Source: Escherichia phage forsur. Taken from it: a DNA stretch of 42,476 nucleotides. Positions 4,854-9,361 of the stretch are shown here, piece by piece. Where the stretch lies: the sequence record MN850617.1, one strand, 5' to 3'. The notes beneath the pieces were generated by a model, which made no database searches, had not been told where the DNA came from, and was given only the letters and a program-made list of their open reading frames with translations. A program made the position numbers and the translations under genes. Numbering within the stretch: position 1 is the first letter of the stretch; every line of letters starts with the position of its first letter.

Positions 4854-5273
4854 ATGAAAGTGACTATTATGGGAAATACAACGCACACGACTATGCCTCT
4901 TGACATTCGGCGTGCGGTGGCCGAGGGCATACAAGCCGAGCGGCCATGGTCAGACCTATCTCCCGATGTGATAGTCGAACGCATGTACGAGGCCACTGCC
5001 GCTGGTTGCGTTGACGTTTACATTACTGCCGACGACGATGGCCTCATGGCTGTTGCTCACATCGGCAGGTTATTCGATATTCATGTGGGCGAGATGGTGG
5101 TCATTATGGCCTCATACGTCTGGCCCCAGTACAGAAACCGTGGAGTGATGCGTGCCATCCTCCGTGTACTCAAAGACGTGGCCCGTTCCGAGGGTGTACG
5201 TTGGTGCGGTTACTCCCACATGGTGCGGCCTTACGTTCAGGAGTACCGCTTCATAGATTTGGAGAAACCGTAA
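4854..5273 (+). CDS. hypothetical protein (139 aa; alternative start 4869)
   Basis: ORF in track; first 14 nt are a copy of the promoter-like 14-mer ATGAAAGTGACTAT, so the true start may be the in-frame ATG at 4869. Confidence 0.6.
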   Translation: MKVTIMGNTTHTTMPLDIRRAVAEGIQAERPWSDLSPDVIVERMYEATAAGCVDVYITADDDGLMAVAHIGRLFDIHVGEMVVIMASYVWPQYRNRGVMRAILRVLKDVARSEGVRWCGYSHMVRPYVQEYRFIDLEKP

Positions 5274-5533
5274 TGGGTAGCGTAGGTAAAGTTTTCAAGG
5301 GGATTGGCTCGGTCTTTGGACTAGGTAGCCAGAAACCCCAGTACACGATTAAGACTGACCCGAATCAGGTCAAGGCTGAAACCTTGAATGCAAACTTGCA
5401 GGCTGATTTGGCGAACGATAACACCCCGACGATTCAGGCAGGTGGTCAGGTTACTTCGGCCTCCGACACTTTATCGAGCCGACGCCGCCGCACCGGAACG
5501 GGTGTAGCAAGCAACCTCGGCATCGGGAGTTAA
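5273..5533 (+). CDS. hypothetical small protein upstream of portal gene
   Basis: ATG 5273 overlaps upstream stop (TAATG) and follows GGAGAAACC; 86 aa, Gly/Ser-rich. Confidence 0.55.
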   Translation: MGSVGKVFKGIGSVFGLGSQKPQYTIKTDPNQVKAETLNANLQADLANDNTPTIQAGGQVTSASDTLSSRRRRTGTGVASNLGIGS

Positions 5534-5536
5534 CGA

Positions 5537-7102
5537 ATGGCATACGACGCGCAGAACGTCAGCTATGAATCGCTCTGGCAAAAGTACCGGGACAGTAACG
5601 TAGTCACCAAGGCTCGTGAGTACAGTCGTTACACGTTGGCCAAGCTGGTCAGTGAATACGACCGCGCCGAGGTAGACGACATGAACCGCCAGCAGATTAC
5701 TCGTGACTACCAATCTGTCGGCGCTCTGCTCGTTAACAACCTCGTCGCTCGACTGGGTGAGTTCCTGTTCCCGGCATCAGCCCGGTTCGTAAAGCTGAAA
5801 CTCGATAAGGTGTCTGACCAACAGCGGCAGCAAATGTCCAAGGTCAATCAGGCACTCATCACTATTGAAAAGGGCATCGTAGACAAAGCCAAAGAGAACG
5901 GCGGCTACGCTGACCTGTTAATGACCATTGCCCAACAAGCAGTCACTGGTAACGCCGCGCTGTACCGCGATATGGAAACTGGAACGTACCGAGTGTACGG
6001 GCTGGAATCCTTCGTGGTGCAGCGCGACGGTCGTGGCGTTGTTACGGACGCCGTGGTCAAAGAACGCATCCAGTGGGATTCCCTCGACAAAGCGTTTCAG
6101 GACATGCTGAACGCCAAGGGCTTCCGCTGTGGTGGTAACAAACGTGTGTGGCTGTACACTCGCGTCCTCCGGGTTAGGAAGGACAGTGGGCTGTATGGCT
6201 ATGAAGTAACGCAGCAGGTGGGCAACTACCAAGGCTGTGTCTACACCCCCGGTAAAGATTACTACCCTGAAAAAGTCTGCCCTTGGATTTTCCCAGTGTG
6301 GTCTTTGAAGTCTGGCGAGCATTATGGTCGCGGGATTGTCGAAGACCACGCTGGGGATTTCGCACGTCTGTCGATGCTGTCTGAGCACTCTGCTCTGTAC
6401 ATGCAAGAGGCGCTGCGTGTCCTGTGGATGCTGACTGGTTCTGGCGGCAACGTCGATGACATTGAATCCGCGCAGACTGGGCAGGTCGTACCTCTCCAGA
6501 ATGGCACCACGCTGTCTGGTCTTGAGGTCGGGGATTACCAGAAAGTTCAACAGGCCCGTGACGAAATTAACCAGATTGTGCAGCGACTCGCGCAGGCGTT
6601 CATGTACACTGGTGAGTTCCGTGACTCGGAGCGTACCACCGCAACCGAAGTGCAGCAGGTAGCAACCAGCGCCGAACGTGGGCTGGGTGGCCCGTACTCA
6701 ATGCAGGCAAAGACCCTCCAGATTCCTCTGGCATACGTCTTGCTCGCAGAGATTGACGAGTCCTCCGTACCTGACATTGTGGGCGATATCCTGACGCTTC
6801 AAGTTGAAGCTGGTCTGGATGCCCTCGGTCGCAGCATCGAAGCTGAGACGCTGATTCGTGCGCTCTCTGATTCGCAGGCAGCAATGGTTGCTGTCCAAAA
6901 CATTAACGGCGTTGCCAACGTCATTGACCCTCAGAAGGTCATTGAGGTTATCTTCGCTTCCAACGGCGTCGCGCTTGATGACTATCGTAAGTCAGCGCAA
7001 GACCTCGCAAATGAAGGTCAGCAAATCGACAGAGCAGCAGCCGCTGCCGCAGGCGTACAGCCGGGCGCAGTCGATGTAGCGCCGAACGTCGCTCAGATTT
7101 AA
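5537..7102 (+). CDS. portal (head-tail connector) protein
   Basis: 521 aa; segments FVVQRDGRGVV, KVCPWIFPV...GEHYGRGIVED and LGGPYSMQAKTLQIPLAYVLL parallel recalled T7 gp8 segments (YVVQRDAFGNVL, EACPYIPIR...GESYGRSYIEE, LGGVYSILSQELQLPLVRVLL). Confidence 0.9.
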   Translation: MAYDAQNVSYESLWQKYRDSNVVTKAREYSRYTLAKLVSEYDRAEVDDMNRQQITRDYQSVGALLVNNLVARLGEFLFPASARFVKLKLDKVSDQQRQQMSKVNQALITIEKGIVDKAKENGGYADLLMTIAQQAVTGNAALYRDMETGTYRVYGLESFVVQRDGRGVVTDAVVKERIQWDSLDKAFQDMLNAKGFRCGGNKRVWLYTRVLRVRKDSGLYGYEVTQQVGNYQGCVYTPGKDYYPEKVCPWIFPVWSLKSGEHYGRGIVEDHAGDFARLSMLSEHSALYMQEALRVLWMLTGSGGNVDDIESAQTGQVVPLQNGTTLSGLEVGDYQKVQQARDEINQIVQRLAQAFMYTGEFRDSERTTATEVQQVATSAERGLGGPYSMQAKTLQIPLAYVLLAEIDESSVPDIVGDILTLQVEAGLDALGRSIEAETLIRALSDSQAAMVAVQNINGVANVIDPQKVIEVIFASNGVALDDYRKSAQDLANEGQQIDRAAAAAAGVQPGAVDVAPNVAQI

Positions 7103-7114
7103 TTTGGAGATTAC

Positions 7115-8347
7115 ATGTCTGGTGAATACCAACCTACTGCCGCACCCGCTCCCCAAAACGTACCCGCTGGCCCGACCTATTCTCCCTCTGGTCACGGCGG
7201 TAATGATTATGGTGGAAGCCCACAGGTGGTACAGAACCCAGCGCTCGGACGCTTAGGCACGCCGATTGAACTGCCGCGAGGTGGTGCAACTCCGCAGCCG
7301 CAACAGCCGTTCGGTCAACAGCCGGGCCTGATTCCAAATCAGGAGTACAACCCGTATGCCCAACCGCAGCAGGGAAACCCAAGCCCTTACGCACCCGTAC
7401 CTCAGCAGAACCCGTATGGTGCTCCGCAACCGCAAAGCCCGTTTGCGGCACCACCTATTCCGATTAATGGGTATCCGCAACAGGGCTACACGCCTCCGGG
7501 CCAAGCGGCTCCGGCACAGCAGCCGGGCTTAGCACCGAACAACCCTGCGTATGGCTTCAACCCGTATGGGCAGCAGCCTCAGCAGCAGCAGCCGCAACAG
7601 CAGGCACCTCAGCAGCCGCAGCAGCCTTTCCAGCAGTTGCAGCCGCAGCCGGGCCAGCCGCCTCAGCAGTTCCAGAATCCGAACCTAACGGCAGAGAATC
7701 TGGCAAAGCAGGAAGGTGGACTGACCGCTGACCAAGTGGCTCAGATTTTCCCGGATGAAACCAGTCGTGCTGTGTTCCAAGGTATGGACACCATCGCCCG
7801 TGGCCAGAACATCGACCTGCTTGCAGCGTTCGGTTCTGCATACGAGCGTCGTGACCCTACTCTGGTGAATGAGCGCTATCTGGCGCAGTTCGACCCACAG
7901 ACTGTATCCATCCTCAAAGGTCAATTCGGCGCACTGGTTGCCGCTGGTCAGCAGCGCGATGCTGCAATCGAACAGCAGGTTTACCAGATGGCTGGTGGCC
8001 AAGAGCGTTGGGGTCTGGCAGTGCAGGCATTCAATACCGCTGCCGACAAAGGCACGATTGATGCTGTAGTAGCGGCTGTGAACTCCGGCGACCCTAATCA
8101 GGTACGTCTGGCAGTGAACACCATTCTCCAGTTTGCTGGTTCCCAAGGGAATATGATTCAGCGTTCTGGACAAAGTTTGACGCCTAATGGTGGCGGTCAA
8201 GCACCTCGTGACGTTATGACTAACGAGGCATTCCGTCAGCATCTTGGCTGGCTTGAGCAGGCGCATCCTGTTGGTTCCCCGGAATACAACAAGCATTACG
8301 CCGTACTGGTAGAGCAGCGCCGTCAGGCCAAAGCTCAAGGTTACTAA
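7115..8347 (+). CDS. scaffolding protein with long N-terminal Pro/Gln-rich low-complexity region
   Basis: Sits between portal and capsid genes; C-terminal part (AGGQERWGLAVQAF...) resembles recalled T7 gp9 (AGGRERFDALYNHL). The N-terminal ~180 aa are P/Q/N/Y-rich repeats. Confidence 0.8.
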   Translation: MSGEYQPTAAPAPQNVPAGPTYSPSGHGGNDYGGSPQVVQNPALGRLGTPIELPRGGATPQPQQPFGQQPGLIPNQEYNPYAQPQQGNPSPYAPVPQQNPYGAPQPQSPFAAPPIPINGYPQQGYTPPGQAAPAQQPGLAPNNPAYGFNPYGQQPQQQQPQQQAPQQPQQPFQQLQPQPGQPPQQFQNPNLTAENLAKQEGGLTADQVAQIFPDETSRAVFQGMDTIARGQNIDLLAAFGSAYERRDPTLVNERYLAQFDPQTVSILKGQFGALVAAGQQRDAAIEQQVYQMAGGQERWGLAVQAFNTAADKGTIDAVVAAVNSGDPNQVRLAVNTILQFAGSQGNMIQRSGQSLTPNGGGQAPRDVMTNEAFRQHLGWLEQAHPVGSPEYNKHYAVLVEQRRQAKAQGY

Positions 8348-8368
8348 TTTCTTTCGTAAGGATTTCCC

Positions 8369-9361
8369 ATGGCCGACAACTACTATCAGCCGAATCAGTT
8401 CCGTCCACACTGGGGTGGTGCGAACTCTGATAACGACATTCACCTTGAGGTGTATGACCGTGATGTGCAGACCCAGTTCATCTACAACTCCATCTTCCGC
8501 AGCGGCCTGACCAACTTCAAGTCTGTTGCGAACCAGTCCAACACTTGGCGTGGCGACCGTCTCGGCTCCGTGTCTGTGAAGGGCCGTAAGTCTGGTCAGT
8601 CTCTGGACAACCAGCCAGTTCGCTCTGAGAAGCTGATTGTCACTGTGGATACCGTGTCTTACATCCGTATCCCGATTGACTATCAGGACGACTGGACTGC
8701 GCCGGACTTCCGTGCTGAGCTGACCCGTAACATGGGTACTGCACAGGCGAAAGCGTTCGACCAAGCGCACGTCATCCAGCTCCAGAAGTCTGCTGACTTC
8801 GTTCCTCCGACCTCTCTGGCAGGCGCGTTCAACTCCGGTATCAAGGAGAAAGTAACGCTGACTGGCACCGTGGCTTCTGAGGAAGACGATGCAAGCGCAC
8901 TGGTGCATGGTCACAAGAAAGTCATTGAGGCGTTCATTCGCCGCGACGCCGACCTTGGCCGTCTGGTAACGCTGATTGACCCGGCGTGGTTCAGCATCCT
9001 GCTGGAGCACAAGAAACTGATGAACGTTGAGTTCACTGGTGGTCGTGGTGTGAACGACTTCGCTATGCGTCGTGTTGCTTACGTGAACGGTATCCGTATC
9101 ATCGAGAGCAACGCATTCCCGCAGGCAGCAATCACCAACCACATCCTCGGTGCCGACTTCAACGTCACCGCCGAAGAAATCAAGCGTAAGATGATTATCT
9201 TCGACCCGTCTCTGGCTCTGGTCACTGTCGAAGCCCAACCGCTATTCAACCGCGTGTGGGATGACGAACGTGAACTGACCAACGTTCTGGACAGCTTCCA
9301 CATGTACACCGTGGGTCAGCGTCGTCCTGACGTGGTAGGCGTGGTTACTACCGAAGCCTAA
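8369..9361 (+). CDS. major capsid protein
   Basis: 330-aa ORF in the conserved position after the scaffold gene, followed by a hairpin terminator as in T7-like phages; RBS AAGGA upstream. Confidence 0.85.
   Translation: MADNYYQPNQFRPHWGGANSDNDIHLEVYDRDVQTQFIYNSIFRSGLTNFKSVANQSNTWRGDRLGSVSVKGRKSGQSLDNQPVRSEKLIVTVDTVSYIRIPIDYQDDWTAPDFRAELTRNMGTAQAKAFDQAHVIQLQKSADFVPPTSLAGAFNSGIKEKVTLTGTVASEEDDASALVHGHKKVIEAFIRRDADLGRLVTLIDPAWFSILLEHKKLMNVEFTGGRGVNDFAMRRVAYVNGIRIIESNAFPQAAITNHILGADFNVTAEEIKRKMIIFDPSLALVTVEAQPLFNRVWDDERELTNVLDSFHMYTVGQRRPDVVGVVTTEA

Follow-up and report, generated by a model that had tools for sequence, protein, structure and literature searches.

The scaffold gene and its neighbourhood

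We analysed the head scaffolding protein gene of Escherichia phage forsur. The whole stretch of DNA (sequence record MN850617.1, 42,476 nucleotides; hereafter the window, to which all coordinates refer) is an apparently complete, circularly permuted genome of the family Autographiviridae, genus Bonnellvirus (J8-65-like). Its G+C content is 55.4%, and the large open reading frames (ORFs) all lie on one strand. The scaffold gene is located at 7115..8347 on the + strand, starts with ATG and codes for a protein of 410 amino acids (aa; 43.9 kDa, isoelectric point 5.25), the first 190 residues of which constitute a low-complexity tail. The ORF begins 12 nucleotides (nt) after the stop codon (7100-7102) of the portal gene (5537..7102, + strand; Pfam PF12236, E=1.9e-46) and ends 21 nt ahead of the major capsid gene (8369..9361; PHROG 267, E=7e-80). 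A GGAG ribosome-binding site (7106..7109, + strand) is situated 4 nt past the portal stop codon and 5 nt 5' of the ATG. The same portal-scaffold-capsid gene order is found in glasur, LIMEzero and phikF77. At the DNA level the gene shares 96.8% identity with its counterpart in phage glasur, and matches over at least 97% of its length were found in 19 phage records.

The whole protein (aa 1-410) matched PHROG 36307 (E=1.2e-217), and aa 155-410 matched PHROG 1018, the 'head scaffolding protein' family (E=1.3e-14); phikF77 gp31 matches both families too. When the predicted fold was compared with BFVD using Foldseek, all the 14 matches at E<=1e-3 were Autographiviridae scaffolding proteins. From the gene position, the PHROG 36307 and 1018 matches and the matches of the modelled fold, we concluded that the product of 7115..8347 is a head scaffolding protein, which upholds the identity proposed in the original prediction, made from the letters of the sequence. 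The gene is already annotated in public records as scaffolding protein, and so are the GenBank homologues from Bonnellvirus. In Kc261 and ROV85 the scaffold is annotated merely as 'hypothetical protein'.

Homologues of the C-terminal part are widespread. A tblastn search with the C-terminal 220 aa found 384 phage records, from phiKMV-like, KP34-like and PP16-like phages, at 21–31% identity, and an exhaustive profile search (hmmsearch) gave 239 representative clusters at E<=1e-3. A scan of IMG/VR for homologues gave only five loci. No Pfam family matched the scaffold at E<=0.1, and a PDB sequence search with the C-terminal profile gave only chance-level RFC matches (E about 1). The search with the N-terminal 190 aa alone produced 8000 word candidates, none with E<=0.01, an uninformative result that is presumably due to the low-complexity correction.

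In one very large protein, P0012 (2870 aa), profile positions 94-151 of the helical domain were matched weakly at 20 separate places (E of 1e-26 when summed). This protein begins with a signal-peptide-like stretch, after which come repeats of about 90 aa that are rich in asparagine, threonine and glutamate. These matches are probably a spurious accumulation over the repeats.

Predicted architecture of the scaffolding protein

We built an AlphaFold2 model of the scaffold with a 96-sequence alignment. The model had no secondary structure in aa 1-190 (7115..7684, + strand), where the mean predicted local distance difference test (pLDDT) score of 10-residue blocks was 38–58, and no folded module N-terminal of the tail. 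Composition, this model and the substitution pattern described below all mark the region as an intrinsically disordered low-complexity tail; the disorder of the N-terminal extension is thereby borne out at the level of prediction. The tail is followed by a helical core domain of nine predicted helices (aa 193-347; 7691..8155, + strand), the part of the protein that is shared with the phiKMV-type scaffolds. The block mean pLDDT of the core was 87–98 over aa 201-340, and the values were mostly above 90 over aa 201-347. A flexible linker (aa 348-369; 8156..8221, + strand), predicted from a low-confidence loop at aa 348-366, pLDDT values below 50 at aa 347-364 and the lack of secondary structure, leads to a C-terminal helix-turn-helix (helices 370-383 and 389-407; 8222..8344, + strand) modelled at a pLDDT of about 94. 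The most conserved residues of the family are present in this helix-turn-helix: R402 is the same in all 96 members, and L398 and G409 vary hardly at all.

Composition and repeats of the tail

The tail contains 24% proline (P), 23% glutamine (Q), 12% glycine (G) and 8.4% aromatic residues, and only six charged residues (fraction 0.03), four of which are aspartate or glutamate (D/E). The Pro/Gln-rich low-complexity extension that had been proposed from the sequence is therefore present. So are the strings named with it: PQQ occurs nine times, QQP seven times, and NPY[AG] at aa 79, 99 and 149. The P/Q-richness is not uniform along the tail. The first 57 residues are rich in G, P, alanine and serine and are not PQ-rich; aa 61-190 contain 30% Q and 27% P, and the local sequence entropy goes down to 1.9–2.3 bits at aa 141-190. 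Other + strand ORFs of the window have a mean P+Q content of 8.5% and at most 12 P+Q per 40 aa, compared to 32 in 40 reached by the scaffold.

Two parts of the tail can be distinguished by their repeats. The aromatic-motif core (aa 79-152; 7349..7570, + strand) carries five [NS]P[YF] motifs (at aa 79, 90, 99, 108 and 149) together with NGY and NPAYGF. Only 0.31 such motifs are expected from the composition of aa 58-190, and none of 5000 shuffles reached five, which amounts to a 16-fold over-representation in the tail. The 190 residues contain 16 aromatic residues, often spaced 9–12 residues apart. The second part, the Q/P tract (aa 153-190; 7571..7684, + strand), was delimited from the output of Tandem Repeats Finder, the direct repeat family D1 and the positions of insertions and deletions (indels) among relatives, and is the most variable part of the tail. 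The sole tandem repeat recognisable at the DNA level lies at 7570-7625; it is imperfect, with periods of 3, 12 and 15.

The composition had also been described as prion-like. A region with at least 30 glutamines and asparagines (Q+N) in 80 residues qualifies as Q/N-rich by the Michelitsch-Weissman criterion, and aa 116-195 contain 33. In this density and in the interspersed tyrosines the tail is similar to prion-like Q/N-rich domains, a likeness of composition only. However, the same 80 residues contain 19 prolines. Proline breaks amyloid, and P/G-rich compositions are typical of expanded or elastomeric disordered chains and not of amyloid formers. The proline and glycine contents of the tail are atypical for amyloid-forming prion domains and make amyloid or prion behaviour doubtful, although the Q/N density itself is as described. 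The PQQPF-type strings resemble the gliadin repeats of P/Q-rich cereal storage proteins.

The tail is part of the translated protein

Such a low-complexity region could be an artefact of a sequencing error or a frameshift, or could lie upstream of the true start of the protein, in which case the short annotations of some relatives would be right. Two public gene calls do begin within the low-complexity region. The scaffold of RZ4, a Cronobacter phage, is called as a protein of 277 aa (BES79676.1; locus L010, 703-1536), and that of the JGI sequence P0003 as one of 305 aa (locus L017, 2001-2918). In both cases, however, the reading frame is open upstream to an ATG with a GGAG site and begins right after the portal stop, giving full ORFs of 411 and 397 aa, respectively. 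The P0003 protein is, on this account, no naturally short variant but a clipped gene call. The methionine used as the RZ4 start occurs in three genomes only. We also looked for an internal start or short isoform in the window: none of the in-frame internal starts has a ribosome-binding site, and Met224 falls inside a predicted helix. As gene callers truncate the N-terminus of the scaffold in public records, the lengths that databases give for scaffolds cannot be relied on.

In 16 related loci the ORF is open over its whole extent, with lengths of 374–411 aa; they comprise eleven Bonnellvirus loci (406–411 aa), four LIMEzero-like loci (387–397 aa) and one metagenomic locus (374 aa). All the 13 relatives checked have GGAG and ATG straight after the portal stop. 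A downstream start would leave 300–570 nt of noncoding DNA in an otherwise tightly packed row of genes. Synonymous changes exceed nonsynonymous ones in the scaffold frame: the ratio of nonsynonymous to synonymous substitution rates (dN/dS; Nei-Gojobori) was 0.21–0.35 for the tail and 0.06–0.11 for the C-terminal part (aa 191-410). The frame of the tail is thus under purifying selection, with a constraint about three times more relaxed than that of the folded part. The open frames in relatives, the GGAG site and these ratios speak against a sequencing error or frameshift, and we consider it extremely improbable that the tail is an artefact or is placed ahead of the true start.

The synonymous divergence of codons 1-57 (7115-7285) was low in some comparisons: it was 0.20, against 0.94 for the C-terminal part, when forsur was compared with J8-65, and 0.23 against 1.44 when it was compared with Lidtsur. 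No such deficit was seen relative to L009 (0.39 for codons 1-57 and 0.31 for the C-terminal part). This pattern points to either mosaic recombination or a nucleotide-level constraint near the portal-scaffold junction.

The tail is an enlarged form of a family trait

We surveyed the tails of 93 representatives of the family, defining the tail as the region ahead of the profile position that matches residue 191 of the forsur scaffold. These tails had a median length of 73 aa, 32% P+Q and 6% D+E. Of the 93 representatives, 71 had a charge-poor tail with a P+Q content of 25% or more, and a few carried acidic tails instead. P/Q(/A)-rich low-complexity N-termini were also found in the LIMEzero scaffold (387 aa) and in phikF77 gp31 (323 aa). 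The forsur tail is the longest seen, about 2.5 times the family median. Tail lengths range from about 50 to 190 aa over the family and from 155 to 190 aa in the Bonnellvirus/Waewaevirus lineage, and only two representatives, both nearest relatives of forsur, had tails of at least 150 aa.

The original prediction had regarded such an extension as unusual for scaffolds. In kind it is common among the homologous scaffolds; what sets the forsur tail apart is its length and the aromatic motifs specific to its clade. By this comparison, forsur has an enlarged form of a tail that is ordinary among phiKMV-type scaffolds. In the literature on phage scaffolds that we searched, there was no account of the forsur tail, and the Bonnellvirus papers searched did not mention the scaffold.

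The phiKMV-type scaffolds (PHROG 1018; for example phikF77 gp31, LIMEzero ORF39 and Ar-KM gp36) occupy the same slot between the portal and capsid genes as the forsur scaffold. They have a helical core and a C-terminal helix-turn-helix homologous to those of forsur, and an uncharged P/Q/A-rich N-terminal tail too. The forsur tail is richer in Q, asparagine and tyrosine in addition to being longer, and the VVxNPALG sequence and repeated [NS]P[YF] motifs of its clade are undetectable in phiKMV-like tails.

Conservation of the tail within the clade

We compared the forsur tail with those of relatives by Smith-Waterman alignment against composition-preserving shuffles. The tails of LIMEzero, L007, P0001, P0006 and P0007 gave z scores of 9–22. 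An alignment of relatives revealed a conserved short linear motif at aa 37-54 (7223..7276, + strand), which reads VVQNPALGRLGTPIELPR in forsur and has the consensus VV(x)NPALGxLxxP(I/V)x(L/M)P among relatives from Bonnellvirus, the LIMEzero-like phages and metagenomes. The N-terminal regions of the relatives that keep this motif are just about 50–60% identical. Other elements conserved in the clade are NPYA, NPSPYAP, QQNPYG, SP(F/Y)AAPP, NGY, PPGQAAP and NPAYxFxPY. Positions 81, 92, 101, 110, 120, 146 and 148 each hold an aromatic residue in 90% or more of the ten diverged sequences compared. In the nine clade sequences with a settable tail boundary, each tail has 13–16 aromatic residues and 3–7 [NS]P[YFW] motifs. 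As judged from these alignments, the tail is conserved within the clade by position and not by composition alone, and the motif at aa 37-54 could be a docking site.

This conservation bears on the possibility that the tail is a passive spacer, that is, an extended, uncharged and non-aggregating chain that fills the interior of the procapsid, maintains the solubility of the scaffold and makes it easier for the scaffold to leave, without making sequence-specific contacts. Composition, but not sequence, is shared with distant members of the family; it ranges from P/A/Q-rich to, in a few members, acidic, and T7 gp9 is acidic at the same position. The dN/dS of the tail, about three times that of the folded part, is in line with such a role. 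The host also has a precedent: the 100-aa P/Q domain of E. coli ZipA is regarded as an unstructured flexible tether (PMC6904479). However, a pure spacer needs neither positional conservation far above the level set by composition, nor seven aromatic positions and the aa 37-54 motif kept at 50–60% overall identity, nor an excess of [NS]P[YF] motifs. The tail being no more than a spacer is therefore disfavoured, and we would put it at roughly a one-in-several chance.

Variation within the tail is limited. The indels among relatives are 1–3 codons long and fall mainly in the Q/P tract (aa 152-186), with one further site at aa 68. Scaffold length in Bonnellvirus is 406–411 aa, a net spread of five residues. 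The suggestion that the region is a hotspot for repeat expansion and contraction is, because of this small net variation in the genus, only weakly true, and what holds of it is the occurrence of small indels in the Q/P tract. The imperfect tandem repeat at 7570-7625, the clustering of these indels and the range of tail lengths between clades would also be compatible with a neutral low-complexity expansion, produced by replication slippage in CAG/CCG-rich DNA and tolerated without function. The DNA-level repeats, however, account for only about 56 of 570 nt, the conserved motifs lie outside the repeat, the length is nearly fixed within the genus, and the tail has the low dN/dS given above. We consider a functionless expansion very unlikely.

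Two segments of the tail within aa 121-152 (7475-7570) each occur in two alternative forms among the Bonnellviruses (L001-L015). One is PQQGYT or QNPGAT, and the other QPGLAPNNPAYGFNPYGQ or QFQQPVAPQPYAFDPYGR. All four combinations of these segments exist, represented by forsur; by RZ4, Kc261 and ROV85; by L009, LF82-23 and altidsur; and by J8-65 and smaasur. The existence of all four combinations indicates recombination inside the tail-coding DNA.

A possible role of the tail in the procapsid

The protein is identified as a scaffold, its tail is translated and predicted to be disordered, such tails occur throughout the family, and the sequence of this one is conserved within the clade. On these grounds we favour, with somewhat better than even confidence, the reading that the region is a genuine disordered tail of an internal scaffold, enlarged in this clade, that makes multivalent weak contacts in the procapsid. 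The C-terminal helix-turn-helix (aa 370-407) would be the coat-binding element and would hold the scaffold on the inner face of the coat shell; this role is proposed because in the scaffolding protein of P22 the C-terminal helix-turn-helix binds coat. The helical core would associate with itself, and the flexible N-terminal tails would point to the interior of the procapsid. Rough polymer estimates give a tail contour length of about 68 nm and a coil end-to-end distance of roughly 12 nm. There the tails would occupy space and, through the [NS]P[YF] cluster and the motif at aa 37-54, engage in many weak contacts, the partners of which could be other tails, portal or core proteins, or coat. Such contacts may raise the local concentration and aid nucleation and completion of the shell. 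An unfolded, uncharged tail might also be easily expelled through the shell at DNA entry.

The scaffold of Ar-KM, a phiKMV-like phage, was found by liquid chromatography-tandem mass spectrometry in virion preparations and was invisible by cryo-electron microscopy, and its AlphaFold models were of low confidence (10.64898/2026.05.18.726046). The invisibility agrees with a largely disordered protein.

Several points weigh against the multivalent-contact reading. The coat-binding function of the helix-turn-helix is carried over from P22 by analogy, and the orientation, partners and role of the tail are steps that we infer. No solved structure resembles the scaffold model in Foldseek and PDB sequence searches. 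Compared with phiKMV-like and other distant tails, the forsur tail gave z scores of about 0–2, composition alone being common to them. Since distant members share only composition, and since some tails are acidic, a generic physical role could suffice. Selection that acts on composition and nothing else could account for part of the purifying selection on the tail. The surveyed tail lengths derive from public gene calls, and as some of these cut the region short, the family median is probably underestimated.

A rival reading, which takes up the condensate-like assembly suggested in the original prediction, is that the tail is a sticker-and-spacer domain. The regular tyrosines and phenylalanines of the [NS]P[Y/F] motifs, set in an uncharged P/Q/G chain, would cause the scaffold to demix into a dense liquid-like phase or an internal gel that recruits coat and portal or core proteins, with coat being concentrated and polymerised there and the procapsid nucleated. 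The number and spacing of the aromatic residues, the low charged fraction and the Q+N density of the tail are compatible with such a domain, and the aromatic count (13–16) is kept across the clade. According to simulations cited in a 2026 review, shell assembly can become faster and more robust through condensates (PMC13185644). On the other hand, the high proline content favours expanded, well-solvated chains, most homologues have tails of about 70 aa that are poor in aromatics, and our literature searches found no phase separation reported for any tailed-phage scaffold. We regard a condensate-forming tail as unlikely. If it were true, the forsur scaffold would be to a tailed phage what the disordered scaffolds are to carboxysomes, and the P/A/Q tails of the family would be weaker versions of the same device.

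Comparison with other disordered scaffolds and tethers

T7 gp9 (PHROG 1052) comes from the same virus family and has the same gene position and role as the forsur scaffold, and it shares an overall layout in which N-terminal disorder gives way to helices towards the C-terminus. The C-terminal part of the forsur protein had been said to resemble gp9, and this resemblance proved to be marginal. PHROG 1052 matched aa 167-338 of the scaffold at E=4.5e-4. In hhalign the 96-sequence alignment gave a collinear match to T7 gp9 over 126 columns, but with E=0.0058 and a probability of 6%. Residues 216-351 of the scaffold are weakly collinear with gp9 aa 126-254, including an AGGxERW/F motif; no Pfam match links the two. 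Nothing was found when T7 gp9 was used as the query in a PDB sequence search. The tails differ in character: aa 1-125 of gp9 are acidic (30% D+E and 6% P+Q), whereas the forsur tail is uncharged and P/Q-rich.

The scaffolding protein of P22, gp8, is described as an internal scaffold, disordered in some segments, whose C-terminal helix-turn-helix binds coat (10.1101/2022.12.13.520362). Like gp8, the model of the forsur scaffold ends in a helix-turn-helix, which is conserved in the forsur family. We detected no relationship in sequence or fold between the two proteins (Foldseek, chain 9kyw_A, E=7). To our knowledge, gp8 is without a P/Q-rich tail.

CsoS2 of the alpha-carboxysomes, for the most part disordered, carries repeated short motifs and organises an icosahedral shell from the inside by multivalent weak contacts. 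The forsur scaffold likewise has repeated short motifs in a disordered chain, to which it adds a folded helical domain; the two are not homologous. The likeness of the tail to CsoS2 lies in the motif repetition, and binding of the motifs to coat is hypothetical in forsur. The P/Q domain of ZipA (aa 86-185) is a P/Q-rich flexible tether in the host species (PMC6904479), and the forsur tail is similarly P/Q-rich and predicted to be unstructured. The ZipA domain joins a membrane anchor to a globular domain, whereas the forsur tail has a free N-terminus and conserved aromatic motifs. The likeness is in composition only, with no homology.

Little is understood of how scaffolds nucleate phage heads and set their size, chiefly because structural methods do not show much of the scaffold. 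In the family described here, a single homologous helical core bears a natural series of tails, from about 50 to 190 aa long, spanning mostly P/A/Q-rich tails, a few acidic ones and the Q/N/Tyr-rich tail of forsur with its conserved motifs. This makes it a convenient system for testing whether a scaffold tail acts as a passive filler, a docking arm or a demixing driver, and forsur is a small phage of E. coli K-12 that is easily manipulated. The tail would gain in importance only if assembly proved to be driven by its conserved aromatic motifs, through multivalent or condensate-like interactions.

Neighbouring and overlapping reading frames

A 517-aa ORF on the minus strand (7685..9238) was considered as an overlapping gene and rejected. 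It covers the C-terminal half of the scaffold gene and almost all of the capsid gene, is in exact codon register with both, and is bounded by the only sense CTA codons of the stretch (7685 and 9242), with no TTA, CTA or TCA between them. Because it is in register and free of TTA, CTA and TCA codons, we take it to be a shadow ORF of codon bias and not a gene.

An ORF of 86 aa (5273-5533, + strand) lies directly 5' of the portal gene. Its product is K-rich/G-rich at the N-terminus, polar and of low complexity in the middle, and carries an SSRRRRTG cluster at the C-terminus. In the 'ejection wedge' orthologues gp7.3/gp34 of phiKMV-like phages, a low-complexity centre of A/Q/P lies between basic ends (10.64898/2026.05.18.726046). 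The 86-aa ORF resembles these orthologues in position and pattern, its centre being not notably P/Q-rich.

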